From positions 10,877 to 74,876 of the IMG/VR virus record IMGVR_UViG_3300033407_000006: a DNA stretch of 64,000 nucleotides, one strand, 5' to 3'. Positions 5,070 to 54,905 of this stretch are shown here, one piece after another (within the stretch, counting starts at the first letter, position 1; every line of letters begins with the position of its first letter). Source of the DNA: a virus. Taxonomy: Duplodnaviria; Caudoviricetes. Both the position numbers and the translations under genes were made by a program. A model generated the notes under the pieces. That model ran no database searches and was not told where the DNA came from. It was given only the letters and a program-made list of their open reading frames with translations.

Positions 5070-6262
5070 AGCAGCCCCTCATCCTTGGCTATCTGCATCA
5101 GGTCGTCTTTGGATGCCCCAGGCGTGTTCTTTACCAAGTTATCGATCATCGTCTCCAGCGGGGCCCCGGTCGCCGCCAGGGTCTTGAGAATGCCGGTCCA
5201 CTGGTTGCGGACCTGCGTTTGCAGCCGCCTGCGCTCTTCGATCTCCCTCTTCGCAACCTTCTCGGCTACGGCCCTCTCCATTTTGGCCCGCATTGCTTTC
5301 TTGTTCGCCTCCCTGAGTCGTTCCTGTGCGTCTTTGGTGGCCTTGCTCGATGCTTTCCGGGCAAAGGCCTCTTGAGCCTTCTTGTAGAGCTGCCATTCCT
5401 TTTGTGCTTCCTGCTCTTCAAACTGCTTCCGGGCTCGCTCTGTCTTCTTGACCTCATCTTTCTTGAGGTACTTGGCGACGCGCTTCGGGTCGCCGGTGAA
5501 GGAAACCGCCGCGCTCTGCTCTTCGAGCTTCTTGGCGAGAATCCCTTGGACGGACGGCGATTGCAGCATGCTGATGCACTTCAGGACGTGCTTGCAGCAG
5601 GCCCCGCGCAGCTTGGGATTTCGGATTTTCGGAAAGGCATGCTCGAAGGGCCGCAGGGCGAAGCCGCCGATGGTGGCGATGTACCGATACCAGTATTGAT
5701 GCCGCCCGCAGTCGCAGTCAAAAGAGATCCGCCCCTTGGCGACGCGCCGCGCTGCCGGAAGGGGGGCTTCGATGCCGGTCACGGCGCTGTTCCACTCTTC
5801 GAGGCGGATTCTTACCTGATGGTGACGGTGCTCGCTGCGGTCTGAGGCGTTGACCCGAAAATGCGTCTCATCCCCCCGGACGGCGTAGAGGACGGCGGTG
5901 CGGATGCCGCTGCCGTCCTTGACCCGGTTATTCGCCCTGGCGAGGTCGATAGACTGGCTGGCGGATACCAGTTGCAGCGCCGGGACGCCCTTTGTGTCTT
6001 TGCCGAACTTCTTTGCGGCGGCATCCGCCTCTTTGGCGAACTTCTGGAGATCCTGAAGGCTGTACTGAACCGTGAGCCCCTGCCGCCCGTAATCCAGCAC
6101 CAGATCTTTGCCGGACTTGAGGTGCTTTCGCAGCAGGGTCGGGGTCAGCGTCCCGACGGCCTGGGTCCGCTTCTCGCTCTTGGCGGATCGGACGGCTTTG
6201 AATTGGCGGGAGAACCGCTTGAAATCGTCCTGGGTGTATTCGCGGTTCGTCTTCAGGGCCAC
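5066..6262 (-). CDS. P1 gp25-like protein with SWIM-type Zn finger
   Basis: FDCDCGRHQYWYRY...CCKH motif and synteny. Confidence 0.7.
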   Translation of the reverse strand: MALKTNREYTQDDFKRFSRQFKAVRSAKSEKRTQAVGTLTPTLLRKHLKSGKDLVLDYGRQGLTVQYSLQDLQKFAKEADAAAKKFGKDTKGVPALQLVSASQSIDLARANNRVKDGSGIRTAVLYAVRGDETHFRVNASDRSEHRHHQVRIRLEEWNSAVTGIEAPLPAARRVAKGRISFDCDCGRHQYWYRYIATIGGFALRPFEHAFPKIRNPKLRGACCKHVLKCISMLQSPSVQGILAKKLEEQSAAVSFTGDPKRVAKYLKKDEVKKTERARKQFEEQEAQKEWQLYKKAQEAFARKASSKATKDAQERLREANKKAMRAKMERAVAEKVAKREIEERRRLQTQVRNQWTGILKTLAATGAPLETMIDNLVKNTPGASKDDLMQIAKDEGLL

Positions 6263-10719: not shown

Positions 10720-10739
10720 GGCGGGCTAAACTATGTTAT
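10720..10739 (+). repeat. Array head site GGCGGGCTAAACTATGTTAT (attI-like, copy 1)
   Basis: Identical 20-mer at 26005-26024, ends in a GTT core. Confidence 0.65.
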
Positions 10740-10942
10740 AAGTCGCTCGTCAATTTGAAGTTGAACGGCCTCTCCGGGGTGTAGTGCTCGCGGATTGAGC
10801 GGTCACGCTCTCGCAGTTGCTCAACGATCCAGGCCTCTGCGAACTTTTCCAGCGTCGGGTAAAAGGTTCGCGTTTTCGTGCTGTCGTTGCCGGTCACGAT
10901 ATAGCCGTTATCAATGCGCTCTATCTGTACGTCAATTTCCAT
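10736..10942 (-). CDS. Cassette ORF, hypothetical
   Basis: Stop TAA inside the GTTATAA core, GGAGG RBS. Confidence 0.7.
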   Translation of the reverse strand: MEIDVQIERIDNGYIVTGNDSTKTRTFYPTLEKFAEAWIVEQLRERDRSIREHYTPERPFNFKLTSDL

Positions 10943-10963
10943 CAGTACCTCCGTTTAGGCGAC

Positions 10964-11066
10964 TCATAACCCGTCGCTGAAGACGACGCGCAATAGCTGT
11001 CGGGTTCGCGTTCGATTCAGTGGTGCGCCGTCGTCGGCGCGGCGCGTCTTACCTTTGTCGTTATGC
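10964..11066 (+). repeat. attC site A1 (103 bp)
   Basis: TCATAAC-N5-GCTGAAGA...TCTTACC-N6-GTTATGC. Confidence 0.8.
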
Positions 11067-11279
11067 GCCAGCATCACCATCCATCAGTCCACAACCAATG
11101 GCGCAATCTTCACAGTGAGGGTTTCCATCACCATCCACAATAGAGTCCTCTTCGCAGTGGCCTGTCGGCTCCTCACATTTGCTGCAAAGCTGCAAAGTTC
11201 CAGGGTAGTTATCTGCGTTCCAATGGGCGTGCTCCTCTTGCGTCATTGCATGTCTGCGTCCGCCTGGCCATGTGTTCAT
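11061..11279 (-). CDS. Cassette ORF, Cys/His-rich
   Basis: CSKC...HC...HCEDC, stop TAA within R' of A1. Confidence 0.65.
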   Translation of the reverse strand: MNTWPGGRRHAMTQEEHAHWNADNYPGTLQLCSKCEEPTGHCEEDSIVDGDGNPHCEDCAIGCGLMDGDAGA

Positions 11280-11315
11280 GGTGTTTCTCCTGTCCGCAAG
11301 ATGTTTAGCTAATTG

Positions 11316-11654
11316 TTATGCGTACAAACATTCACGCCCAGCCATCTCTGCGGAAATCCAGTCTCCATCCATCGCATTTCCATTGATGGCCTTCTCCAGT
11401 TGCCGCAGCGTGTCCCGCAAGGATTTCTCTAAATCGTTTATCCGGTCTTGCTTTATGCTCACAGTACCCTTCAGCTTCACGTTCTCGTCCCGCAGGTCTT
11501 TCAGTTCTGCGGCTATCGTGTCCAAAAAACCAACTGGATCTGCACTTGCCAACAGATTACCGCCGCTTATCATGTCGGCGAGTCTTCCAAAAGCCGCGTC
11601 AATTCTCGCCAGTTTCCCTTTCATGCTTCCCATAGTTTCCTCCAAAATTCGCAT
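11316..11654 (-). CDS. Cassette ORF, coiled-coil hypothetical
   Basis: ATG inside R'' of A2, TAA inside orphan R' at 11315. Confidence 0.65.
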   Translation of the reverse strand: MRILEETMGSMKGKLARIDAAFGRLADMISGGNLLASADPVGFLDTIAAELKDLRDENVKLKGTVSIKQDRINDLEKSLRDTLRQLEKAINGNAMDGDWISAEMAGRECLYA

Positions 11655-11716
11655 AACCAGCGGGTCAACTCGGATTGCGCAAACTGCCGCGCAACCGGTT
11701 ACCCTTGTCGTTATAA
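11651..11716 (+). repeat. attC site A2 (66 bp)
   Basis: GCATAAC-N5-GGTCAACT...GGTTACC-N6-GTTATAA, extra C in L''. Confidence 0.85.
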
Positions 11717-11902
11717 ATCTTTGTGCGAAAGAGTGGCGGCACGTACGTACTCGCTTGGAGTAATTCCTGCCACCACAGCTTTGCGCTCTACCTCATCCCA
11801 CTCTTCAGCCGTCCAGCGGGTTTGCTTAACAACGTCCCGCACAGGTTTGCGGCTGGTCGATCCTTGCGGCCTGCCCCCGCCTCGCCATCCTCCTTTAGGC
11901 AT
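11711..11902 (-). CDS. Ribbon-helix-helix (MobC-like) DNA-binding protein
   Basis: GGWRGGGRP...RWTAEEW..VERKA..AGITPSEYVR. Confidence 0.7.
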   Translation of the reverse strand: MPKGGWRGGGRPQGSTSRKPVRDVVKQTRWTAEEWDEVERKAVVAGITPSEYVRAATLSHKDL

Positions 11903-12128
11903 GGTCGCCCTCCACAAATGAGCATGGTGCATAATCAAGAGGATCTCCACCGAGCATCCCCGGCTTTATGTTCCATCCACAGCGCCAGGGGTCAATCATA
12001 CTTGCCAGCTCCGAGCGCAGTGCGTTCTTTTGCAGGACAAAGCCGGTGAATCGCTGCCGGTATCTGCACCCCGCCGCACATTCGGGCGGGGTGCCGGTAT
12101 TCGTTGGGTCTGCCGGTAGTGGCCTCAT
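11895..12128 (-). CDS. Hypothetical protein
   Basis: ATGA-coupled to the upstream ORF within the promoter cassette. Confidence 0.5.
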   Translation of the reverse strand: MRPLPADPTNTGTPPECAAGCRYRQRFTGFVLQKNALRSELASMIDPWRCGWNIKPGMLGGDPLDYAPCSFVEGDHA

Positions 12129-12313
12129 ACCCACCCCCCAGTTTCTGGGTCATATGCTTGGCGGCCACAAAAAACCGGATCAGGGCTGTGCGAAACGCGC
12201 ACCAACGAAGCAGCACCAACAAGACGGGCAGACTCGAAGCGCAGGTACGCGAGGCCAGCAAGCGGGGTGGAATCAGCGAGGGTGCCATTGATGTGAATTT
12301 CATAAGTTTCCAT
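12125..12313 (-). CDS. Hypothetical protein
   Basis: AGGAG RBS downstream of a sigma70 promoter. Confidence 0.6.
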   Translation of the reverse strand: METYEIHINGTLADSTPLAGLAYLRFESARLVGAASLVRVSHSPDPVFCGRQAYDPETGGWV

Positions 12314-12344
12314 GTTTGTTCTCCTATGTCGTTAAGTTGATTTA

Positions 12345-12373
12345 AATATATTTCAACTTTGTTTTCTTGTCAA
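12345..12373 (-). promoter_or_regulatory. Cassette-internal sigma70 promoter TTGACA-N17-TATATT with overlapping inverted repeat
   Basis: AAGTTGA (12334-12340) / TCAACTT (12352-12358) flank the -10. Confidence 0.75.
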
Positions 12374-12425
12374 TACAAAAAAACAACTAAACTATTAATT
12401 TGCCACGGAAGAGACGCCCAAAGAT

Positions 12426-12483
12426 TTATAACAAGTCAATCAACCGGATTCGCTACGCTCTCCGGTTATTTCAGTCGTTAGAT
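12426..12483 (+). repeat. attC site A3 (58 bp)
   Basis: TTATAAC-N5-AATCAACC-GGATTCGCTACGCTCTCC-GGTTATT-N6-GTTAGAT, textbook architecture. Confidence 0.92.
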
Positions 12484-12500
12484 TCTAAATCTGCGCAAAA

Positions 12501-13295
12501 TCAGACAAAGCACATGCCGCTCGAACAGTATCCGCCCGCATCGAATAGGGTCGGTTCTGCGGTAAAGTCCACCTGGTCCAGCGGTGTGCATGATCGGTGC
12601 AGCCAGGCGCACGGGTCGAACGCCTGCATTTCCCTCTCGAACGCCACCGCTTGAGCAAATTCGTCCGGTGCGTTCTCCTTCAGGTCTTTCCATTCGTCGT
12701 CGGCTTGGTTCGGGCACATCCAGCAACGCGACCTGGGCGGCTTCGGCCACCCCATCTTCTCGACTTCGCGGATTCCGTGGTGCCTCTTCATCGGCACATC
12801 GTGAATCATCGGAAACCGGATAAGCCCTTTTTCCCATTCCGGCCCCGCCATCATTCGCAAAGCCCGGCGCGTTTCGTCCATGCTGAATCCGATCCACATT
12901 TTCACCTTTGAGCGGGTCAAACCGAATGTCTTGCTCAAAAAACTCTGAATGACTCGGTTTTTCCATTTGCTTGAACAAAACCCCGGCATCTTGCCGACGT
13001 TCCCGGTCTCGTCTGTCCATGTTGGCAAAATCATGGTCTTCCCGCTCGGGTCAAGCCAGTTCGGATCTTTTGCATAATGACCGCCCCACTCATCGCAGCA
13101 CACACGATGAATTTCTACCCCTACCCCTGCCAGTGCAGGCAACGTAACGGCGTTAAGGTATTGCCACGTTGTCCCGCATTCCCGACCAGTGTCGGCAATC
13201 ACCGCAAGATCCGGCTTCGGCAGCTTTCCTTGAATTATCAGCGAAGCGATACAGTTGCTTTGCGTCCCGCCTCCGCTGCTAAAAACCTCAACCAT
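12501..13295 (-). CDS. Cassette ORF: PP-loop adenine-nucleotide alpha-hydrolase (PAPS reductase/DndC-like) family protein
   Basis: SSGGGTQS PP-loop, ADTGRE, CSSKWK, RSRCWMCP, terminal CSSGMCFV. Confidence 0.7.
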   Translation of the reverse strand: MVEVFSSGGGTQSNCIASLIIQGKLPKPDLAVIADTGRECGTTWQYLNAVTLPALAGVGVEIHRVCCDEWGGHYAKDPNWLDPSGKTMILPTWTDETGNVGKMPGFCSSKWKNRVIQSFLSKTFGLTRSKVKMWIGFSMDETRRALRMMAGPEWEKGLIRFPMIHDVPMKRHHGIREVEKMGWPKPPRSRCWMCPNQADDEWKDLKENAPDEFAQAVAFEREMQAFDPCAWLHRSCTPLDQVDFTAEPTLFDAGGYCSSGMCFV

Positions 13296-13334
13296 TTAAC
13301 CCCCTATCGGGCTGCGCCCGAGCGCAGATTTAGA

Positions 13335-13392
13335 ACCTAACCCAGCGGTGAAGCGGATTCGCTCCGCTCTCCGCTTACCTCAATCGTTACCT
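13335..13392 (+). repeat. attC site A4 (58 bp)
   Basis: ACCTAAC-N5-GGTGAAGC-GGATTCGCTCCGCTCTCC-GCTTACC-N6-GTTACCT. Confidence 0.88.
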
Positions 13393-13537
13393 TGCAAGTT
13401 CTACATTTCATAGTTGCCTCCAACGCCTCAGACCCCGGCGCACAGGGCTGCCGCCAGGGTCGCCGCTGTCCACCTCAATGGCGATCTGGTCGTAGCTGGG
13501 CCGTATCCCCGCCGCCGCCTCGCCTGGGCTGTCAATT

Positions 13538-13867
13538 TCAAAGATGATTTTCTTCATAGACCTCTCCCTCGTTCAGCTCTTTTGCCATGCCGAGCGGCCA
13601 CCAGCGGGATATACAGCCGGGGCTCCGCATTGAAATGACCATCTCGGACGCTTCGAGCTTATTTAGAAGCCTGCGCGTGTTCTCAATGCTTTTCCCGGCA
13701 ACTTCGGCGATGCTGACGGTCAACGGCCCAATATCAACGGCCACGGCGTCGCCTTTTGAAACGTAGTAGTTCATGCAAAAACTGCTTTTAGCCACATGAG
13801 TCCGGCAGCAGGCTTTGAGCGCTTCGAGAACTTTTTCTGCTTCGGCGGAAATGACTCTGTTTTTCAT
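13538..13867 (-). CDS. Hypothetical, possible winged-HTH protein
   Basis: 109 aa, GGAGGGAG RBS, LTVSIAEVAGKSIENTRRLLNKL. Confidence 0.6.
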   Translation of the reverse strand: MKNRVISAEAEKVLEALKACCRTHVAKSSFCMNYYVSKGDAVAVDIGPLTVSIAEVAGKSIENTRRLLNKLEASEMVISMRSPGCISRWWPLGMAKELNEGEVYEENHL

Positions 13868-19727: not shown

Positions 19728-20637
19728 CGCCTTCCTCCCATTGCTCAGAGTCTTTGAGGCGGGCCTTGCTCTCTTCGATTTCGGCCCGGCGCTGGGGTAC
19801 AAACTGCTCCCGCTGCTCTTCGCGGGCCTTTCGCATCTCGGCAGCCCGGCGCTCCAGCTCTTCCGTTGAAGGCGGCTTGGCGAACCTGTCTTCGAGGCCT
19901 TCTTCCTTCATGATCGCCAGTTCCAGCACCTTGGGCAGGGGCAGCCCCAGGCAAGCGAACTCGAAGCCGCCTTCCTTGGCCGTGATCTCCCCGCTCTGAA
20001 CCCGTCGCAGGATCTTGGCCTGGGCATCGGTGACGCGCTGGTGCGCCTCGCTGAAGAGCTTCTGATACCGACCCATCATCTCGCGGGCCTTCTGAACGTC
20101 GTGGGCCTTCACCTTGACTTTGCGGACCCGGCCCAGGACGGGATTGCCTTCGGCGTCGGTGTCGATTTCCTCCAACACCTCTTCCACGTCGATTTCCCGG
20201 ATCTGGGCAAGCTGGTCCGGGGTCGCCTTCTTCAGGTTGAGGATCGGCATGCCGCGCTCGTCCACGTCGAAGAAATCGAACATGCTGGCCCGCGCCGTAT
20301 TGGAAATCAGGCGCAAATTCTCATCAATGGTAAGAATCGCCTCTTTTTCCCGCCCGGCTATCAGTTCTTTCATGAGTTCTGCAACTTGAACCTTTTTAAA
20401 CAAGGCGCTGGCCTTGGTCCCGGCAGAGCTTTTGGAGTAGTTGGTGTAGATTTTCAGATAAGCGTTGGTCATGGAAAGCGTCGGATCTTTGACGCGCTCC
20501 ATGACGACAAGCCAATCCTTATGGGTAAGGCCGTAGCTGTTGCGTTTTACTGTAGGCTCTCGTTTTTTCTGGGTTTTTTTCTTCGCGGCAGGTTTTTTAG
20601 GCGCTGGTTTCGTGGCCCGTGCTTTCTTTTCAGTCAC
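19717..20637 (-). CDS. terS: Terminase small subunit (PacA-like)
   Basis: Basic N-terminus, SMTNAYLKIY...AGTKASALFKK, KVKVKAHDVQKAREMMGRY, P1 PacA-like C-terminal GLPLP. Confidence 0.75.
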   Translation of the reverse strand: MTEKKARATKPAPKKPAAKKKTQKKREPTVKRNSYGLTHKDWLVVMERVKDPTLSMTNAYLKIYTNYSKSSAGTKASALFKKVQVAELMKELIAGREKEAILTIDENLRLISNTARASMFDFFDVDERGMPILNLKKATPDQLAQIREIDVEEVLEEIDTDAEGNPVLGRVRKVKVKAHDVQKAREMMGRYQKLFSEAHQRVTDAQAKILRRVQSGEITAKEGGFEFACLGLPLPKVLELAIMKEEGLEDRFAKPPSTEELERRAAEMRKAREEQREQFVPQRRAEIEESKARLKDSEQWEEGDGR

Positions 20638-26004: not shown

Positions 26005-26024
26005 GGCGGGCTAAACTATGTTAT
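26005..26024 (+). repeat. Array head site GGCGGGCTAAACTATGTTAT (attI-like, copy 2)
   Basis: Identical to 10720-10739. Confidence 0.65.
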
Positions 26025-26257
26025 GCCTTAAAGCCGTACGATTTACGGCCCCTCCCAAAAGGTCCGGCATTTATCCTCTCCTCCCCTGCTCGCGCTGTCC
26101 ACTTCGCCTTCCAAATTTTCTTCCCAGGCTCGGTATCTTGTGTTCCCTCAATGACATCCCCACCCCAAGCTTTTTCGATAGCCTCGGCTTCGGTGGCTGC
26201 CTCAACGCAACACATTGTTTGGGTGCTTTCGTAGCCTTCCACGTAAAAAATAGGCAT
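26021..26257 (-). CDS. Cassette ORF, hypothetical
   Basis: ATG in R'' of B1, TAA in the head-site core. Confidence 0.65.
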   Translation of the reverse strand: MPIFYVEGYESTQTMCCVEAATEAEAIEKAWGGDVIEGTQDTEPGKKIWKAKWTARAGEERINAGPFGRGRKSYGFKA

Positions 26258-26311
26258 AACCAATCCTTTCAGCGGACTCGCTCCGCTCGCGGCTGAAGTC
26301 AGTTGTTAGGC
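26254..26311 (+). repeat. attC site B1 (58 bp)
   Basis: GCATAAC-N5-CTTTCAGC-GGACTCGCTCCGCTCGCG-GCTGAAG-N6-GTTAGGC. Confidence 0.88.
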
Positions 26312-26634
26312 AGCCCCAACAGTTGCCGAGCCGCCGCAATGTCGGCAGCGGTCACGCCGGTCGGCACGCTCTTGTACTCAAGGTCGCGCTTCAAGCCGTC
26401 CCATGCTTTGTGTAGCGCCATCACGCCTTCATGGTGTTCTTGGCTCAGGTAGCAGCAGCCAGGCGCCGAGAAACCCCCTCCGTCAGCCACCAGCGTTTCG
26501 AGATCAATCCGCTCGCGGTTGTCGAGTTGAGCCCACTTGCGGCCGACCTTCGTCACTGTCACTTCTCGTGGCAGCGCGTGCCGCTGGCTTTGCGGCACCC
26601 ACCAAAGTATTTGCCCTTCCGTCAGTTTTTCCAT
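26299..26634 (-). CDS. Cassette ORF, hypothetical (beta-barrel-like, VTVTKVGRKW)
   Basis: 111 aa between B1 and B2. Confidence 0.7.
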   Translation of the reverse strand: MEKLTEGQILWWVPQSQRHALPREVTVTKVGRKWAQLDNRERIDLETLVADGGGFSAPGCCYLSQEHHEGVMALHKAWDGLKRDLEYKSVPTGVTAADIAAARQLLGLPNN

Positions 26635-26645
26635 TCTCCGATCCC

Positions 26646-26737
26646 TTCTAACTTATCGTTGCAGGCGACCGCCGAACAGCCGCCTATAGCTTCCTCTTGC
26701 GCTCCTGCGCGGCGTCGCCTGAACTCAGACGTTATCT
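26646..26737 (+). repeat. attC site B2 (92 bp)
   Basis: TTCTAAC-N5-GTTGCAGG...CCTGAAC-N6-GTTATCT. Confidence 0.85.
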
Positions 26738-26935
26738 GCTCAGTGCCTCACCGATAGCGGTTACCAAATTACTTTGATCTTGGCTTTTGCACTCAATGTG
26801 TGGCAGCGCATCGGTCAGCATTTTTCTAAGGGTTTCGTTTTCTTCCCTCAACTCATCCGAGCAGGCCCGCGACATCCGCAGGTGCATTTCAATGTCGGTG
26901 ATTTTGTCTACTAACTCTCTTTCTCGTTTGTCCAC
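26732..26935 (-). CDS. Cassette ORF, coiled-coil hypothetical
   Basis: GGAGG RBS with GTG start, stop in R' of B2. Confidence 0.6.
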   Translation of the reverse strand: MDKRERELVDKITDIEMHLRMSRACSDELREENETLRKMLTDALPHIECKSQDQSNLVTAIGEALSR

Positions 26936-26948
26936 TTTTGACCTCCGC

Positions 26949-27013
26949 AGATAACCAATCGTTGCAAGCGGACTCGGCAAACTGCGCCGAGCCCTTGACC
27001 TCAGTCGTTATGC
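26949..27013 (+). repeat. attC site B3 (65 bp)
   Basis: AGATAAC-N5-GTTGCAAG...CTTGACC-N6-GTTATGC. Confidence 0.85.
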
Positions 27014-27276
27014 AACTCGTCACCGCCCCACGGCGCTCCCGACTCCCGCAACGCCAACTTGAGCGGCAGAAGCGTGCATACATCACCGTCGGCCAGGTGG
27101 CCGTTTGCGTCGAGCGTCTGGCAAATTGCGGCGCGCAGCCTTTCAACTTCCGCCGAAAGAATCTCGGCAATATCCACACTGCCGTAACCGCTGCCGGTCA
27201 TGTCGTCATCTTCGTCGGTCGGCCCGGCTATCTCGTAGCAAAGGCGCCTCGCCAAATCTATGCTGCCTCGTTTCAT
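27001..27276 (-). CDS. Cassette ORF, hypothetical
   Basis: GGAGG RBS, ENGHLADGDVCTL-type motif (ANGHLADGDVCTL). Confidence 0.65.
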   Translation of the reverse strand: MKRGSIDLARRLCYEIAGPTDEDDDMTGSGYGSVDIAEILSAEVERLRAAICQTLDANGHLADGDVCTLLPLKLALRESGAPWGGDELHND

Positions 27277-27291
27277 TTCTCAACCTCCGTT

Positions 27292-27359
27292 GCATAACCC
27301 GGCAGTCCACCTGACCTGCCGCATAAAGCCGCGTCAGTCAGGTGACTTTTGCGTTAGGG
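27292..27359 (+). repeat. attC site B4 (68 bp)
   Basis: GCATAAC-N5-AGTCCACC...GGTGACT-N5-GTTAGGG, extra C in L''. Confidence 0.85.
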
Positions 27360-27548
27360 TGCTTCGGGGCGGCTCTGTTTTGCGTACAGCTCCAGCCACG
27401 CAAAAGCCAAACCCGGCGGGCGTCTCCCGCTCGGCCCGTCATCTTCCCAACTCTGCCAAGTGCGGTACGGTGTCCCCGTCAACCTGGCCGCTTCTGCCAT
27501 AGAGAGACCCGACTTCTGCCGGGTCTCTCTCAGTTCCTTGGCAGTCAC
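27354..27548 (-). CDS. Cassette ORF, XRE-family HTH protein
   Basis: ELRETRQKSGLSMAEAARLTGTPYRTWQSWE. Confidence 0.8.
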   Translation of the reverse strand: MTAKELRETRQKSGLSMAEAARLTGTPYRTWQSWEDDGPSGRRPPGLAFAWLELYAKQSRPEAP

Positions 27549-27781
27549 TGGTTGCCATCCGGACGGACGATTTCTGCCCCTTCCTCGACAAGACGGGAGC
27601 AAAGGTCAATACACTCCTGACTTCCTACTCCATAGCCAATTTTTCCGCGCAGTTCGTCGGGGACAGGACAGGCCGCGACCCCTTCGTCACTCATTGGATC
27701 GCCGTCGTAACTTTTGACCTGTTCCGCATTCGCCGGCCAGCAGAATTGTCCGTCATTCATTACTACGTATTTGCTTTTCAT
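27545..27781 (-). CDS. Cassette ORF, hypothetical, coupled to the HTH gene
   Basis: AAGGAG RBS downstream of a promoter. Confidence 0.65.
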   Translation of the reverse strand: MKSKYVVMNDGQFCWPANAEQVKSYDGDPMSDEGVAACPVPDELRGKIGYGVGSQECIDLCSRLVEEGAEIVRPDGNQ

Positions 27782-27830
27782 GGCTGTACTCCTTCTGGTT
27801 TGGGTTATTTGTTCCGCTTTCTTGATTCTA

Positions 27831-27880
27831 ATTATATGCACATTGTGACTGATTGCAAGTAAAATAATTCACTTTGTGCA
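27831..27880 (-). promoter_or_regulatory. Cassette-internal promoter TTGCAA-N16-TATAAT with operator-like inverted repeat
   Basis: TGCACATTGTGA (27837) / TCACTTTGTGCA (ending 27880). Confidence 0.7.
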
Positions 27881-27905
27881 TTTTTATTTGAGCGGCGCAA
27901 AATCA

Positions 27906-27974
27906 CCCTAACCAGTCGGTCAATCGGACCGTCGCGAAAGTGCCGCGCCGATCCGCTTACCTTTATCGTTAGTT
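27906..27974 (+). repeat. attC site B5 (69 bp)
   Basis: CCCTAAC-N5-GGTCAATC...GCTTACC-N6-GTTAGTT. Confidence 0.85.
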
Positions 27975-28220
27975 TGCTTGTGGCACTTCCAGCGGCCCGT
28001 ACCACTTCCCACCGATCTTATTGACACGCTCGCGGTAGCCGGTAAGCGGGCGGCACCCAACAAAACCACACGCGGCTTTAATGACTTGGTAAATTTCTAC
28101 GCTGTTCGCCCTTCCTCCGCCGTCATCGTTCCAATAAAAACCTTCGGCGGTCGGTTCCTCTTTCGACCAGCGCAAACTAACACCAGTTTCGAGCGGACGG
28201 TTTTCACTTTCCGTTTCCAT
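27969..28220 (-). CDS. Cassette ORF, hypothetical (WSKEEPTAEGFYW...WYGPLE.P)
   Basis: Starts inside the B6 stem, stops in R' of B5. Confidence 0.65.
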   Translation of the reverse strand: METESENRPLETGVSLRWSKEEPTAEGFYWNDDGGGRANSVEIYQVIKAACGFVGCRPLTGYRERVNKIGGKWYGPLEVPQAN

Positions 28221-28260
28221 GGGTTGCGGCCTCCTCCGCCGCTCAAACTAAACGTTAGGC
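28175..28260 (+). repeat. attC site B6 (86 bp)
   Basis: AACTAAC-N5-TTTCGAGC...GCTCAAA-N6-GTTAGGC, extra C in L''. Confidence 0.9.
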
Positions 28261-28325
28261 CAGATATTCAGCTTCTCAAGGGTTTCACGATCTTTGAGCC
28301 TCTCGTAAATCACTCCCACCTCCTC

Positions 28326-48551: not shown

Positions 48552-51500
48552 TTACGACAGGATTTCGTACAGGTCTTCGAGGTTGACCGTCGAAGGCACA
48601 TGCCACCAAGAGCCCTTGAACTCTCCGGGTTCATCAGAAAAGTACTTGGCATCGTAGCGGGCTTTAAGGGTTTCTTTCCGCGCTCTCAGGTTCCCGTTCC
48701 ATCCCTTTGTATCCTGAATCAGCAGGCGGCTGAACGGGGCGAAGGTCTTGCGGGAAACGACAAGGTTGCCGGTGTTGATTTTCACGATCATGCCGATTTT
48801 ACGGAAAGCCTCAACGATGTTTTCGGGCACTTCCTTGTAATTCGGGTCGGCCTTCAGGGCTTCCTGCTTGGCCAGCTCCGCTTCTTCCTGCTCGGCCCTG
48901 GCGATCCGCTCGGCCTCTTCCTTGATGGCCTGGGCCCGCCCGTCGATTTCCGACTTCTTGGCCTTCATGAAGTCATTCGCCCATTGCTGGATTTCGGCCC
49001 GGTTGTCTCCAAGCGCGAAGCCAGCGCTTTGAAGCGCGGTTGACCAACTCCCCACCGAACGCCAGGGCCCGTAATAGCCCCCGTTGTTGATGGCCTCCTT
49101 CAGGATCGCGTCCGTCCAGGGACCGGACGTGTTCGCCGCCTTGGCCGATTCGACAAAGGCTTCATGAGCGGACGCCAGCGCCTCCAGCACGTCGCCTTGC
49201 GTTGCTCTTGTCCCGTACTCGACAGCCTGGGTCTCAAATCCGGCCCCGAAAAGTTCGGCCATGGTCCGTTTGACGGCGTAGAGGCTTGATGCTCCCGAAC
49301 GGACCATGCCCAGGTAAAACTTGAAAGCGATCTCTCTGAACGAGGAATCGTTTTTGTCCGGGTAAAGCAGGGTGTTTTTCTCCCGGTCGAAGTAATCGAA
49401 CGCGACGCCTCCATCAGGGTTGCGAACGAAAACAGGGTTGTAGACCTGGACCTTCACCTTGTCGTAATGCTCCAGAAAGGTTTCCTTGTCGATTCCGGCA
49501 GCCAAGTCCGCATAGGCAAACTCGGTATTGAGCACCTTCACCAGATTGAGTTCGGCCTCGGAGTAAGTGACCTGCATCGCCTCTTCACGGTCAAGCGTCC
49601 GAATCTCGCGCCAGCCGTGGACCGTCTTGCCCTCGAAGTCTTTCGCGTACTCGAATTTCGTGGCGGGCAGCGAATTGCCGATGATCATCTCTGCGGTGAA
49701 GCCGCGCAATTCGTGGTTCACCTCCTTGATTTTGAAAATGCGCGTCGTGCTGCTATCGGCCCGATATTCCCAGGTATCGCCCACGGCAACCAGCTTCCCG
49801 CCTGGCGTCGATAGGACTTCCCCGGCCCGCTCTATCAGCTCGGCATCGAATGGCAGGTCGTTCTTCGCCGCCTTGGCCTTCAGTTCGAGCTTTGTCCGGG
49901 TGATCTTGGCCGCCAGATCCGTCTTCTTGGCGTCGAAGCGAACGTCAAGCGTTGCCAGCAGGTTTTCGGCCTTCTTGAGGTTGTCCTGCTTTTTCCCGAT
50001 TTTGGACCCGATAGATTTCCGCTCGTCGCCGGTTGCGCTTTGGCCTTTGGTTTTCAGGGCGTCGATTTCCAGGGTCAGAGTGCGGATCTCTTCGGCGAGG
50101 TTCTTGCGCTGCTCTTCACGGCCTGCTTCCAGCTTGGAGAGCGCCGCCTCGTTGGATGCGAGTACCTGGAGTTTGTTGACCGATGCGGCCCGGCTGCGCT
50201 CCCGGTCTTTTTCCTCCTTGGCCTTCCTGATTTCAGCGAGCTTTTGCTTTGCCGCCTCGGGGTCCGCCTCGAACATCAGCATGAGTTCGTCGGTGTCCGT
50301 GGCGTTGGCGTTCTTTGCCGTGGCCTCGCCGTTTTTGCTGAACAGTTCGTTGAGCCAGCCCTTCTTGGTGTTGAGCGTGTTCAGCCGGTAGCTGTCGAAA
50401 CTGCGCTTGGCCTGATAGTAGTAGATTCGGACCTTGCCCGCCGTGTTGCCCTGGCGCAGGCCGCGCCCGTTGCGCTGGGTGATGCTTGCCGGGGTCCAGG
50501 GGAAGGTCAGGTGGTGGATTCCCGTCGTCCCCTTCTGGAGATTCAGGCCCACCTCGGCCTTCTTGTTGGCGATGACGATGCGGACGGAACCGGAGTTGTA
50601 CGCCGCCGCGATTTGCTGAACCACATCGTCCTTGGCTTCGTCGGCATTGATGATGGCGATCTTGGTTTCGTCCATGCCGAGATTGTGCGCCAGGATGCGC
50701 CGCAGCTTGCCGTGCTGGGTCTTCTCGTCGGTGAAGATGATTTGCTTTCCGTTCGCCTCCACCTCCGTGCGGCAATTCTCTACCAGCTTGGCGTACTTGG
50801 GGGTCAGGGGGTGCGATACCGATTGAGGGTCGATTTTGAATTTGCCGAACTTCTTGACGATCTCGCCCTCGTAGCCCTGATTGACCGTCACGATGTAGGT
50901 TTCGCCGGATTCCTTTTTCACCAGTGCGTCAGCAAGGCGAATGGTGCGCTTGATGGCTTTTTGAGGCTTGCCCTGCTCCGAAAGATCCTCGTTGAAGTCC
51001 GGGTCTCCGATCCGGGGGGTGACGCTGATTTCAATCGACTCCTTTTGAGCCGCGAGCAGGGCATCCACCTTGCTCTTTTCGGACGCCTGAAAATGGAAGG
51101 TGATAACGCCCCGGAAAAGATCCATGTCGGTCGTCACCGTCTCCATGTCGCGCATGATGGAGAAGATCGGCCTGGGGTTCGCGCTCGGTACGCCCTTGAG
51201 CATGTCGGACGCTTCGCGGCGCAGGCGTTCGTAGTTGGTCTCCTGCTCCGGGGCCATGCCCACTTCTTCGTTCAGCTCTTCGCCTTCTGGCAGCTCCAGC
51301 CCTACATCGTTGGCGTTTTTGAGCGTCGCGTATTTGTTGAACAGCGCCCGCAGGCCGTCAAGGTTCTTGAAGCCGACAAGGCCCTCCTTGGTGACGGTTT
51401 CGGCGGCAACGGTCAGCTTGTCCACCATGGCCGTCTCCCCGAACTCGCGCATGAAATCGTCGGGGTTGGAGATGCCCCTCGCCTCGAATTCCTCGAAAGG

Positions 51501-54500
51501 AATCACCTGGGCCAGGGAGTTGAAGATCTCCAGCGGGGAGTTGGTCACGGGGGTTGCCGAGAGCTGATAGACGCCGCGCCCGCCGTTCATCTCCCGGATG
51601 ACATCGGCCTTGAGCTGCATGTCAAGGCCGCGCTGAGAGGGGTTGATCTGGGAGACGAAAGCGAGGCTGCTGGTTTTCTCCCCTCCGGCGAAGCTGTTCT
51701 TGAACGCATGGGATTCGTCGGTGATGATGTCAGTAAAGCCCAGATCTTCCAGGTAGGGGAGCTGGTCTTTTTTGTCTCCGATGTTCGAGAGGTCTCCCTC
51801 CAGCCGCTCGGCCTTTACGGCATCGCCGTAAGAAACCTTGTCGTTCTTCTCGGCATCTTTCAGGGTTTTTTCGTCCATCAGGCCGCGCTTCGTCCATTTA
51901 TCGACGAAGGCGCTCATGGTTGCGGGCTTGACGGGGATATCCTTGAGCTTTTCGTGTGTCATGACGATCAGGGAGTAGTTCGACTGCGGAATCCTCCACA
52001 TATCCCGAAGCACGTCTTCCCGGTCGTTCCGCACGATGAGCCGATCCCGCCACATGGGATTGCCGTTCTTGTCCGTGGCCTGATTGCCCTCTTCGTCAAG
52101 AACGGGCTCCTGCATGACGGTTCCGTCTTTGCCGAGTTCGGGCTCCAGCCCGACGAAAAGAACCTGATCCATGTTGCCGAGGAAGGTCTTGGATTCGTGA
52201 TACCAGTTCGACAAGACTGAGTTGGGAACGGCGATGCAGGTTCGCTTGGAGCGTCCCATCTGCTTGTTGTAGGCGTAGAGGCCCAGGGCGGTGAACGTCT
52301 TGCCCACGCCGACATCGAAACCGATAAGACCGCCGCCCATTTCGGAGCGGTTGCGGATCTCTTCGTTCTGGTGAGGCTTCAGCGTGATTTGCCCCGAGAC
52401 GTTTCTCAGCCCCAGGTCTTCGCCGCTGTGCTCGAAGGGCAGATACCCGTTGTATTTACGGTCGTAGGCGTCCAGAACGTCGGATATGTCGCCGTGGCTC
52501 TTCATCCAGGCGTTGAACTGCTCTTCGATCCCCTGGATATACTCGAAGTATTCCGTTTTCGCCTCAGAAGCGGTTGCATCGGCCCGGTTGCCCCCGCGCA
52601 CGTTGTCACCGTTGAGGTACTTCTCGAACTGGTTGCGCTCTTTCTGGAGCGACTTTCCAGCCTCAAGCTGCCACTCACCGAAGGGGTTGTCCGTGTTCTC
52701 CACAAACTGTTTTTTCTCTTCGGTCTGCCCGTTGTAGGGGTTCTCCGTCGTCACCAGCTCAACGGCCCCGTAGCGGGCCTTGGGGAATCCGAATTGACGC
52801 AGGAACGCCAGGGGATACTTCTTGTCGATCCACTTGGAACGCAGGGAGAATGTCAGGCGCTCGGGGTCGATGCGGGGGCGCAGTTCATCGATCCGGCGGA
52901 CCTGTGACAGGAATTTCGCCCGAAGGCGTTCGTCCTTTTCCGAAGCCGCAGCGTCGTACAGGGCCGCGATCTTCGGGAAGATATCGCCGCTGCAATACCG
53001 CCCCATGGGTTCAATCATGCCGCCGGGGGTAATGGCGATACCCTCCACGTCCGCCAGATCGGCCATGGATTCGATTTTGCGCCCGCCGGTATAGAGATCC
53101 TTGATGGTCTCCAGGTCGATTTCCGTGATCCCTTCGCGGACAAACAAATGCTCCACGATGGCCTGAACGTCGTCGGTCGCAAATTGCAGCGTCCGCCCCG
53201 TACCTTCCAGCGTCCCGGCCAACAGGTCCGAGAATGCGCCGTTTCTGTCCACGCTGGCGGCGAAGGCCCCGAATGCCCGGGAGGAGCTGCCGGTCACGTT
53301 CAGCTTCTTGTTGTTGGCCGGGTGCCCGTAGCGCTCGATTTCGGCAACGATGAGTTCCTGAAGGGCAAGGCGCTCCGACTCGTCACCCGCCCCGTCGGAG
53401 ACGGCATTTTGATAGCGCCCGATCATGCCGCCGATGATGGACCCGCGCCAAAGCTGTTCACTGAGCTTGGGGTTTTGGCTCATGGCAAACTGAATGGACT
53501 CGGAAGCCAGTGCGCCCATTCGGTCGCCATAGGCCTTGAAGGCCCTCCATGCCTGGGCGGCGGTGAGCTTGAGGCAGGTTCTCGGGTTGTTCAGGATGTC
53601 CAGCAGCTCTTCCACGGTCCCGGCTCCGAACTGCTCCCGGTCAATCGGGTGATCGGGGTCCGCTGATTCCAGCCGGGTCCAGCCGTTTTCGCCGAACTCA
53701 TATTCGATGCCGTTGATGGTCTTGCGGTCTCCGGGGGCGTAGTTCTTCGCTTCGGGTTCCACCAGTTCCAGCGCCGCCCAATCGATGCGGCTCGCAAACT
53801 TCTGAGCCAGCCGCGCCTTGAGCCCGGCGTCGTCCACGTCACCGTCTACGCGCTCGCGGCTCCAGCGGTCTCCGTCCACCTTGGGAAAGTATTGGCCCAT
53901 GATGAACCGCTTGCCCTCCCCCAGCCAGTACCGGCCCTCAATGAACTCATCGAAGAAAACGCGGGTAGATTCGAGCGTGTCCTTGTCCAGCTCTTCGAGC
54001 TTGGCCGCCACCTCCGCAATGTGCTTGCGCAGAACCACAACGTCCGTGACGGTATCGGTGCCCTGGCTCGCAAAGGTCTTGCTGGGCAGCTTGTGCGCCC
54101 CGAGGAATTCGGCCTTGCGGCTGATGCCCCGCCGCCAGTTCTGCCATGCCGCCTGTTTGTTGCCGACAACCGACGTGGGGCAGATGAGTACCGCCAGCCC
54201 GCCCGGCTTGATCTTGTCCAGGATGCGGGTGATGAAATAGCGCTCCAGACTGCTCTCGTTGCGGAATGCCTTGTCGATATGCCGGGAAGCGCCTCGGGCG
54301 TTGCCAAAAGGCACGTTGGTCACGCAGGAATCGAAGGTGCCGTCGGGCGTGTCCATGACAAGCTGCTCGAACGGCTTGTTGCTGATCTTGTCCTCGGGGT
54401 TGAGCAGGGCGGCAATCTGGCTGCCGTCCTTGTCGATATCGCAGCCGGTGACGATGACATCCCCTTTAGGCTTCGTCGCGCTGAACATCCCGTGTCCGGT

Positions 54501-54905
54501 TGACGGGTCCAGGACGTTGCCGTTGACGAAGCCATTGGCCTTCAGGGCGTCCCAGACGCCTTCGGCGACATGCTTGGGGGTGTAATATTCGTACTGGCTG
54601 TTCTGGGTAAGCCCACCGCGTCCGCTGTATTGCTTCAGGGTTTCAATCTGCTCCGGGGTCAGGTCTCCGGGGCGGGGGTTGCTGTCCAGAATCTTGCGGG
54701 CCTCCTCGTTGATGCGCTCGCGGGTTTTGATGCCGCTGGCCTTGAGGCCGTACTCGCTCGTCTCGTCCTTGTAGCTGGTCCGGTTCTCGGGCTGCTTCGG
54801 CTTCACGGACAGGCCGAAGATAGCCGAAAACGACTCCTTGACCTCCCTGATGCTGGTTGCGCCACGGATTGCCGCCAGGGCTTCGGCGCGGGTCATGTTG
54901 GGCAT
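48552..54905 (-). CDS. darB: DarB-like N6-methyltransferase/SNF2 helicase (2117 aa)
   Basis: VLDPSTGHG, TNVPFG, GFDVGVGKT, ITDESH, LSATP, EVGLNLQ, QRNGRGLRQGN. Confidence 0.92.
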   Translation of the reverse strand: MPNMTRAEALAAIRGATSIREVKESFSAIFGLSVKPKQPENRTSYKDETSEYGLKASGIKTRERINEEARKILDSNPRPGDLTPEQIETLKQYSGRGGLTQNSQYEYYTPKHVAEGVWDALKANGFVNGNVLDPSTGHGMFSATKPKGDVIVTGCDIDKDGSQIAALLNPEDKISNKPFEQLVMDTPDGTFDSCVTNVPFGNARGASRHIDKAFRNESSLERYFITRILDKIKPGGLAVLICPTSVVGNKQAAWQNWRRGISRKAEFLGAHKLPSKTFASQGTDTVTDVVVLRKHIAEVAAKLEELDKDTLESTRVFFDEFIEGRYWLGEGKRFIMGQYFPKVDGDRWSRERVDGDVDDAGLKARLAQKFASRIDWAALELVEPEAKNYAPGDRKTINGIEYEFGENGWTRLESADPDHPIDREQFGAGTVEELLDILNNPRTCLKLTAAQAWRAFKAYGDRMGALASESIQFAMSQNPKLSEQLWRGSIIGGMIGRYQNAVSDGAGDESERLALQELIVAEIERYGHPANNKKLNVTGSSSRAFGAFAASVDRNGAFSDLLAGTLEGTGRTLQFATDDVQAIVEHLFVREGITEIDLETIKDLYTGGRKIESMADLADVEGIAITPGGMIEPMGRYCSGDIFPKIAALYDAAASEKDERLRAKFLSQVRRIDELRPRIDPERLTFSLRSKWIDKKYPLAFLRQFGFPKARYGAVELVTTENPYNGQTEEKKQFVENTDNPFGEWQLEAGKSLQKERNQFEKYLNGDNVRGGNRADATASEAKTEYFEYIQGIEEQFNAWMKSHGDISDVLDAYDRKYNGYLPFEHSGEDLGLRNVSGQITLKPHQNEEIRNRSEMGGGLIGFDVGVGKTFTALGLYAYNKQMGRSKRTCIAVPNSVLSNWYHESKTFLGNMDQVLFVGLEPELGKDGTVMQEPVLDEEGNQATDKNGNPMWRDRLIVRNDREDVLRDMWRIPQSNYSLIVMTHEKLKDIPVKPATMSAFVDKWTKRGLMDEKTLKDAEKNDKVSYGDAVKAERLEGDLSNIGDKKDQLPYLEDLGFTDIITDESHAFKNSFAGGEKTSSLAFVSQINPSQRGLDMQLKADVIREMNGGRGVYQLSATPVTNSPLEIFNSLAQVIPFEEFEARGISNPDDFMREFGETAMVDKLTVAAETVTKEGLVGFKNLDGLRALFNKYATLKNANDVGLELPEGEELNEEVGMAPEQETNYERLRREASDMLKGVPSANPRPIFSIMRDMETVTTDMDLFRGVITFHFQASEKSKVDALLAAQKESIEISVTPRIGDPDFNEDLSEQGKPQKAIKRTIRLADALVKKESGETYIVTVNQGYEGEIVKKFGKFKIDPQSVSHPLTPKYAKLVENCRTEVEANGKQIIFTDEKTQHGKLRRILAHNLGMDETKIAIINADEAKDDVVQQIAAAYNSGSVRIVIANKKAEVGLNLQKGTTGIHHLTFPWTPASITQRNGRGLRQGNTAGKVRIYYYQAKRSFDSYRLNTLNTKKGWLNELFSKNGEATAKNANATDTDELMLMFEADPEAAKQKLAEIRKAKEEKDRERSRAASVNKLQVLASNEAALSKLEAGREEQRKNLAEEIRTLTLEIDALKTKGQSATGDERKSIGSKIGKKQDNLKKAENLLATLDVRFDAKKTDLAAKITRTKLELKAKAAKNDLPFDAELIERAGEVLSTPGGKLVAVGDTWEYRADSSTTRIFKIKEVNHELRGFTAEMIIGNSLPATKFEYAKDFEGKTVHGWREIRTLDREEAMQVTYSEAELNLVKVLNTEFAYADLAAGIDKETFLEHYDKVKVQVYNPVFVRNPDGGVAFDYFDREKNTLLYPDKNDSSFREIAFKFYLGMVRSGASSLYAVKRTMAELFGAGFETQAVEYGTRATQGDVLEALASAHEAFVESAKAANTSGPWTDAILKEAINNGGYYGPWRSVGSWSTALQSAGFALGDNRAEIQQWANDFMKAKKSEIDGRAQAIKEEAERIARAEQEEAELAKQEALKADPNYKEVPENIVEAFRKIGMIVKINTGNLVVSRKTFAPFSRLLIQDTKGWNGNLRARKETLKARYDAKYFSDEPGEFKGSWWHVPSTVNLEDLYEILS

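Follow-up and report, generated by a model that had tools for sequence, protein, structure and literature searches.

Two probable integron cassette arrays without an integrase in a tailed phage, with their genes on the attC bottom strand

Integrons are the textbook bacterial device for gene capture and expression, in which recombination through the bottom strand orients the cassettes for expression from the Pc promoter. A stretch of 64,000 nt from a tailed phage (the window; positions 10,877 to 74,876 of the IMG/VR virus record IMGVR_UViG_3300033407_000006) contains two clusters of sites resembling attC, the recombination site of integron cassettes, and the open reading frames (ORFs) between them appeared to run against that orientation. 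This raises the question of whether the clusters are integron arrays and on which attC strand their genes are encoded. The attC top strand was found to be + in both clusters (arrays A and B), and the genes lie on the - strand, i.e. the bottom strand. The clusters are very probably genuine integron cassette arrays without an integrase (clusters of attC sites lacking an integron-integrase, CALINs) in a reversed layout of phage type.

Anatomy and polarity of the attC sites

Both regions were read directly and scanned for TAAC...GTTA hairpins. A total of ten complete attC sites was found, spanning 10964-13392 in array A and 26254-28260 in array B:

10964-11066, 11651-11716, 12426-12483 and 13335-13392; top strand +; complete attC sites of array A
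About 11290-11321; truncated attC of array A (cassette A2), of which only the L'/R' half is recognisable
26254-26311, 26646-26737, 26949-27013, 27292-27359, 27906-27974 and 28175-28260; top strand +; complete attC sites of array B

All ten present the inverted core boxes RYYYAAC...GTTRRRY around an imperfect palindrome and share one layout, consisting of a TAAC-type R'', a 5-nt spacer, a 3-bp L'' start with an extra base, the stem, L', a spacer of 5-7 nt and a GTTA-type R'. Thus, the two clusters, with four to five and six sites and no intI, agree with the definition of CALINs, which asks for two or more attCs on one strand, spaced by less than 4 kb, and for no neighbouring intI (Cury 2016, PMC4889954).

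As the whole finding hinges on the top strand, this was tested in five ways, namely by the extra-helical bases, a covariance model (R1), the array ends, the position of intI in relatives and the boundaries of shared cassettes. All five confirmed that the attC top strand is + in both arrays, as a preliminary description of the sequence had held.

Extra-helical bases lie on the R''-L'' arm and direct strand choice (Bouvier 2009, PMC2727003). Unpaired bases were found on the left (+) arm in 10/10 window sites, as in seven authentic class 1 attCs read in the sense of the gene; in attC 11651-11716, for instance, the bottom-strand extra bases are G, +4 and +8. The convention was controlled with the attC of aadA1, which was found unchanged in 1962 plasmids and, in the class 1 integron L018, lies directly 3' of aadA1 on the strand of the gene; the attCs of estX, psp, aadA2, cmlA1 and qacL in L018 are likewise 3' of their genes and on the same strand. 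When aligned, the arms of the authentic attCs showed a 5-nt spacer on the left, then three pairs followed by an extra base, then six or seven pairs followed by a second extra base, with a right spacer one base longer than the left one, and the window sites match this arrangement on + (10/10).

The model R1 was built from these seven class 1 attCs and run without filters over the window. It reported nine of the ten sites on +, with scores from 36.2 down to 10.1 bits; six of them had E values of 0.06 or below (about 1e-6 for two), three were weak and 11651-11716 was not reported. The sole match on - (28175-28261, 12.2 bits) was overlapped by a + match of 17.5 bits. The model assigned the top strand to +, in favour of the preliminary description. 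Two further R1 matches, at 20355-20413 and 50336-50385, were rejected as attCs for lying inside genes and having no TAAC/GTTA boxes.

Regarding the array ends, the left end of both arrays is a lone GTT box and their right end a complete attC, as growth by attI x attC recombination predicts with a + top strand. An identical 20-mer, at 10720-10739 and 26005-26024, encloses each lone box and resembles the L-box/N3/GTT core of attI1 as present in L018. These head boxes are only attI-like and may be a working attI. A 16-mer of the head site was also found in 14 viral contigs, none with attC matches, and was treated as chance. In another phage contig (L211), positions 5866-5885, 115 nt upstream of the intI start, share 16/20 bases with the window 20-mer (up to four mismatches being allowed), including GGCGGGC and the ATAAC-N3-GTTTA core; this look-alike, the only one that was found, may point to a cognate integrase family, although it is weak and is taken as a lead, not as evidence.

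Cassette genes and the units that move

The features of both arrays, with the cassettes delimited at the expected crossover points, are as follows:

10720-10741; +; head site of array A, with a lone GTT box that lacks a partner for a hairpin; the crossover would fall at 10735/10736
10736-11060; -; cassette A1, ORF 10736-10942 (68 aa) and attC 10964-11066 (R1 18.5 bits on +)
11061-11315; -; cassette A2, Cys-rich ORF 11061-11279 (72 aa) and truncated attC at about 11290-11321
11316-11710; -; cassette A3, coiled-coil ORF 11316-11633 (conserved start) and attC 11651-11716
11711-12477; -; cassette A4, NikA-like ribbon-helix-helix ORF 11711-11902, promoter-like site 12373-12345 and attC 12426-12483 (R1 34.3 bits on +)
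12478-13386; -; cassette A5, PAPS-reductase-like ORF 12501-13295 and attC 13335-13392, the complete site closing array A
26005-26026; +; head site of array B, again with a lone GTT box; the crossover would fall at 26020/26021
26021-26305; -; cassette B1, ORF 26021-26257 with its ATG inside R'', and attC 26254-26311 (R1 36.2 bits on +)
26306-26731; -; cassette B2, ProQ_C-like ORF 26299-26634 and attC 26646-26737
26732-27007; -; cassette B3, ORF 26732-26935/26980 and attC 26949-27013
27008-27353; -; cassette B4, ORF 27001-27276 and attC 27292-27359
27354-27968; -; cassette B5, ORFs 27354-27602 (helix-turn-helix-like) and 27545-27784, promoter-like site 27858-27831 and attC 27906-27974
27969-28254; -; cassette B6, ORF 27969-28220 and attC 28175-28260, the complete site closing array B

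The coding strand was established by a codon log-likelihood model, trained on 164 long ORFs and right about the sense strand in 92.5% of held-out 80-codon pieces, and by matches to Pfam and PHROG families. The model placed 11/11 window cassettes opposite to the attC top strand, and the family matches on - were those of 26299-26634 (Phage_ProQ_C_like, 1e-15), 11711-11902 (NikA-like, 1.5e-8) and 12501-13295 (PAPS reductase, phrog_424, 4e-27). In the canonical layout, the attC top strand carries the ORF and the attC follows at the 3' end of the latter, whereas 11/11 window cassettes code on the bottom strand. The claim that every cassette ORF lies on - was therefore upheld, and the translated strand was not +.

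The core of R' reads AA|C on the coding strand, so that most ORFs end in a TAA provided by R'. In particular, eight of the 11 terminal ORFs have as their stop the TTA of a GTTA box, which is TAA on the - strand (1/3 expected, p = 0.009), at positions 10736, 11061, 11316, 11711, 26021, 26732, 27354 and 27969, and these were the eight for which an R' stop had been proposed. In 26299-26634 and 27001-27276, the GTT core is an in-frame Asn codon and a TGA follows one or two codons later (Asn, Asp and TGA in the case of 27001-27276), which comes from the conserved TCAG of the right spacer. Both ORFs run past the core into the neighbouring spacer, and hence their C-termini depend on the adjacent cassette. 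The ORF at 12501 has its stop 18 nt inside its own cassette. The TCAG conserved in the L'-R' spacer (26299-26311 and 27001-27013) is TGA on the coding strand, so that the end of the attC offers stops in two frames, either TAA in R' or AAC (Asn) and then TGA; an identical or similar motif is present in class 1 attC spacers (TCAGGC, TCAAGC).

The proposal that R'' supplies start codons was borne out in part. The ATG at 26257 lies within R'' with AAGGA six bases upstream, while that at 11654 is not conserved, as an 11-nt insertion in a homologous cassette of another phage contig (L197) puts it out of frame; a GGAGG and the ATG at 11633 are kept in the window and L197 copies of this cassette (A3). 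In ORF 27969-28220, the ribosome-binding site (RBS) and the first 15 codons are inside attC 28175-28260, in agreement with the start that had been described inside the stem of B6.

The boundaries of the mobile units were given by blastn among the viral loci. Window positions 11315-11712 match 11331-11739 of L197, a 17-kb phage contig in which the shared cassette adjoins an intI remnant, with 77% nucleotide identity. The similarity starts at G|TTATGC and ends at GTCG|TT, and the flanks are unrelated. Such homology, exactly bounded by G|TT, means that the moved unit is a - strand ORF together with the attC on its 5' side, contrary to the rival polarity, which predicts that the opposite attC would travel. 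A second locus (L060) shares the cassette 27354-27968, with the left boundary exactly at G|TTAGGG. Furthermore, the PAPS-reductase family of cassette A5 recurs in a cassette (13007-13846) of the phage integron L196, a relative of 43 kb with terminal repeats and an IntI.

Strong sigma-70-like promoter-like sites were found on the - strand in two cassettes, at 12373-12345 (A4) and 27858-27831 (B5), and terminator-like sites were not enriched. The promoter region of B5 is about 90% conserved between window 27790-27900 and about 1010-1146 of L060, where the upstream gene (corresponding to 27545-27784) has diverged or been replaced and the attC core is different; B5 looks like a toxin-antitoxin-like module exchanging parts. 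Transcription of the cassettes would probably proceed by read-through, as the preliminary description had suggested, and their genes would be expressed together with the - strand phage genes around them, no Pc promoter being involved.

Phage relatives and the orientation survey

A variable-loop motif common to three window attCs was used as a seed, and 34 viral loci were found, many of them with arrays. Four of these phage records carry an IntI that exceeds the TIGR02249 cut-off (372-401 bits), and a remnant is present in one more. In these relatives, the start codon of intI is preceded at 20-90 nt by a lone CATAA|C box. The orientation of intI, divergent from the attC top strand, is that of ordinary integrons. 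The cassette ORFs, however, share the strand of intI and are read towards it. The window presents the same reversed layout, with bottom-strand ORFs that are co-directional with the flanking phage genes and with the lone box downstream. However, the intI that follows the lone box in the relatives is absent in the window phage, and no TIGR02249 match appeared anywhere in the 74,876-bp record, so that no intI with an attI beside the array, as in a complete integron, was found.

The orientation of cassette ORFs relative to attC was surveyed in phages and bacteria, with one model and one pipeline for all sets, as the preliminary description had proposed. The counts for phage and bacterial arrays, opposite to and the same as the attC top strand, were:

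attC loop motif as seed; phages 36 opposite and 1 same, bacteria 2 opposite and 17 same (Fisher p 3e-11)
IntI as seed; phages 41 opposite and 4 same, bacteria 1 opposite and 49 same (Fisher p 4e-21)

Therefore, arrays were nearly all reversed in phages and nearly never in bacteria, and the reversed layout is general among the phages surveyed, with dozens of contigs that show it, many of them encoding an integron integrase. The expectation that classical cassettes are mostly on the top strand agreed with the 49 same and 1 opposite of the bacterial arrays, and 6/6 cassettes of a class 1 control array had the same orientation. The IntI-seeded phage set comprised the best 80 of at least 504 IMG/VR contigs, the kept ones being at least 45% identical. 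Three of its four 'same' calls came from one contig with the inverted-integrase layout, and the fourth was a class 1 integron. The bacterial IntI-seeded set comprised 20 IntI places in genomes of one class, of which 15 loci gave cassette calls; three of the 20 stretches were too short or not searched, and three genomes flagged as unpublished contributed no regions. The preliminary idea of a phage-adapted cassette pool is thus supported beyond the window, both by the cassette shared with L197 and by the contrast in orientation between phages and bacteria.

The surveyed phage contigs carry portal, terminase, protease and tail genes, and in two of them (L222 and L228) intI is directly upstream of the gene for a portal or a terminase. 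IntI relatives (E at most 1e-3), the weaker of which may be other tyrosine recombinases, are encoded by at least 504 IMG/VR contigs, and the best 80 of them (L204-L283) share 45-100% identity with a phage IntI. The viral IntIs clustered strongly (5 label changes vs. 18.7 expected by shuffling) in a quick tree that was midpoint-rooted, had a narrow bacterial sample and was used solely to show this clustering. In the same tree, IntI1 (L018, identical in L265) was nested in a well-supported clade otherwise consisting of 19 viral IntIs, which, given the narrow bacterial sample, is a lead only. Moreover, two loci, L201 (a metagenome-assembled genome of Thermoanaerobaculia) and L216, have the known inverted-integrase layout, in which the array follows the 3' end of intI on the same strand and the attC top strand carries the ORFs; their attCs belong to the same loop family as the phage sites.

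Among GenBank phages, no clear cultured example of the reversed layout was found. The uncultured Caudoviricetes Virus Rctr41k (KX853513, L304) has an IntI-like gene annotated as xerD, with 42% identity to a phage IntI; its neighbouring genes are all co-directional and the attC matches are marginal and downstream only.

As for the genome that carries the arrays, the window is part of a 74,876-bp IMG/VR record with direct terminal repeats. Its genes, nearly all on the - strand, include those of a portal protein, tail-fibre-like proteins, SbcCD-like proteins and a 2117-aa DarB-like methylase/helicase, the ORF of the latter (48552-54905) matching DarB-like antirestriction, methyltransferase and helicase PHROGs. 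In IMG/VR, the closest relatives of the neighbouring SbcC-like gene were only 33-37% identical and without arrays. The closest ProQ_C-like homologues of the 26299-26634 product showed 60-68% identity.

Interpretation, alternatives and meaning

In this reversed layout, the recombinogenic bottom strand of every attC is the - strand, which is also the coding strand, and the order within a cassette, in the sense direction, is attC hairpin, RBS, ORF and crossover point. The crossover itself would be canonical, at the G|TT of R' on +, which corresponds to AA|C in the coding sense. In terms of phage transcription, each array starts at its downstream end with a lone GTT site, which would act as or derive from attI, and closes upstream with a complete attC. 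New cassettes had been expected to enter at the promoter-distal end, which fits this geometry, as the lone box of the relatives lies downstream of all cassette ORFs and before intI. Since the phage has no intI, an IntI must act in trans, and it would presumably come from a co-infecting phage or prophage like the relatives, or from the host.

Several points weigh against this interpretation. The record has no integron integrase, which leaves activity in the window phage putative. A number of sites score weakly with R1 (10-14 bits, E above 0.5) or, in the case of 11651-11716, are not reported, and R1 rests on just seven attCs, five of them closely related. In the survey, ORF strand was taken from a codon statistic and not from homology-backed gene calling, and the 'first cassette' intervals may span more than one unit. 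Furthermore, ProQ_C-like homologues appear in 22 other phage contigs with no attC nearby, so that some cassettes may be resident phage genes with acquired attCs.

Among the alternatives, the most direct one is a misassigned strand, whereby these would be ordinary cassettes with their top strand on -, each ORF being followed by its own attC and TAAC being the usual stop in R''. Read on the - strand, the succession of ORF, stop in TAAC, hairpin, GTTA, RBS and next ORF does look canonical, the attCs are near-palindromic and one of them gave the weaker - match mentioned above (28175-28261). However, this alternative is already contradicted by the extra bases on the left arm, the nine R1 matches on +, the lone box at the left and complete attC at the right with intI beside the lone box in relatives, and the shared-cassette homology, which takes in the attC 5' of the ORF and leaves out the 3' one; it is barely credible. 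The sites could otherwise be look-alikes, namely intergenic phage repeats that are regulatory, terminator-like or substrates of another recombinase, the exchanges being due to homologous recombination at conserved boundaries. Phage genomes do carry boundary repeats, the window genome has no IntI and some sites score weakly. Nevertheless, a model of class 1 attCs fits two of the sites at E about 1e-6, the same attC family appears in bacterial integrons with IntI, related phage arrays abut bona fide intI genes, homology breaks exactly at G|TT and not within conserved sequence, and there is no enrichment of terminator-like sites, which makes look-alike repeats very improbable.

A further possibility concerns the origin of the layout and is compatible with reversed CALINs. 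Insertion of attCs or cassettes at antisense GTT secondary sites, provided by the TAA-C stops of resident phage genes, would turn ordinary phage genes into reversed cassettes, and IntI is known to insert cassettes at GTT attG sites genome-wide (bioRxiv 10.1101/2022.09.11.507474). The 8/11 terminal ORFs ending in an R' TAA would agree with it, as would cassette genes of typical phage families and the ProQ_C-like homologues found elsewhere without attCs. In contrast, the right flanks of both arrays are no gene stops, the cassettes move as an ORF plus attC with exact boundaries, the arrays of relatives start at an attI beside intI, and compaction explains the TAA rule equally well. Such an origin is considered unlikely.

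The reversed CALINs share with classical integrons (class 1 and the sedentary chromosomal ones of Proteobacteria) the R''/L''/L'/R' boxes, the extra-helical bases, the unpaired spacer, the predicted G|TT crossover and the lone box at one array end, and intI of the phage relatives is likewise divergent from attC with the attI position at its 5' end. They differ in that the window cassette genes are on the bottom strand and run towards the position of intI, and in that the window phage has no intI. With the genes on the bottom strand, the attC precedes the gene instead of following it, and Pc-type expression is impossible. The inverted integron-integrase group (Treponema and others; Cury et al. 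2016, PMC4889954), in which intI shares the orientation of attC, resembles the phage type in having intI and cassette genes co-directional. However, intI of the phage relatives points the other way from attC, and the reversal is that of the genes within the cassettes; this grouping is inapplicable to the window phage itself, which has no intI.

Some promoter-bearing toxin-antitoxin cassettes sit reversed in the arrays of chromosomal integrons. Those are exceptions in canonical arrays, whereas the window cassettes are all reversed and most have no promoter of their own. Toxin-antitoxin cassettes of chromosomal integrons carry their own promoter (Richard et al. 2024, PMC13108822), and these single promoter-bearing cassettes resemble A4 and B5.

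Clusters of attC sites without integrase have already been published for virulent and temperate phages, some of their sites being recombined by IntI1, and the cassettes of TJE1 and PH101 were described as typical of bacterial arrays (Qi et al. 2023, PMC9892861). In the parts of that article that were available, the ORF strand relative to attC polarity is unreported, and the complete phage integrons are of host type, unlike the reversed layout of the window. The integron of Shewanella phage M16-3 was found to have the canonical orientation on checking. Phage CALINs are thus known, and no account of reversed cassettes in phage integrons was found among the full texts searched.

Phages may well keep a large integron system of their own, mirroring the bacterial one, which seems somewhat more probable than the opposite. 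It would have the same chemistry and attC polarity, with genes on the bottom strand and cassettes read towards intI from phage promoters, and the window phage would be an integrase-less client with two docking sites of one 20-bp attI-like sequence. The reversed phage layout indicates that the recombination machinery is separable from the expression logic. It also appears that phages have a pool of small accessory genes of their own, which can be shuffled and in which functions of host takeover and anti-defence are likely represented, and surveys that assume an ORF followed by its attC will mis-delimit phage cassettes. Moreover, the recombinogenic strand would be the non-template strand of active phage transcription. 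Finally, the reversed layout provides a concrete test of how phage and host cassette pools stay apart or exchange; if true, orientation would insulate the phage and bacterial pools from one another, a cassette of one being silent in the other.

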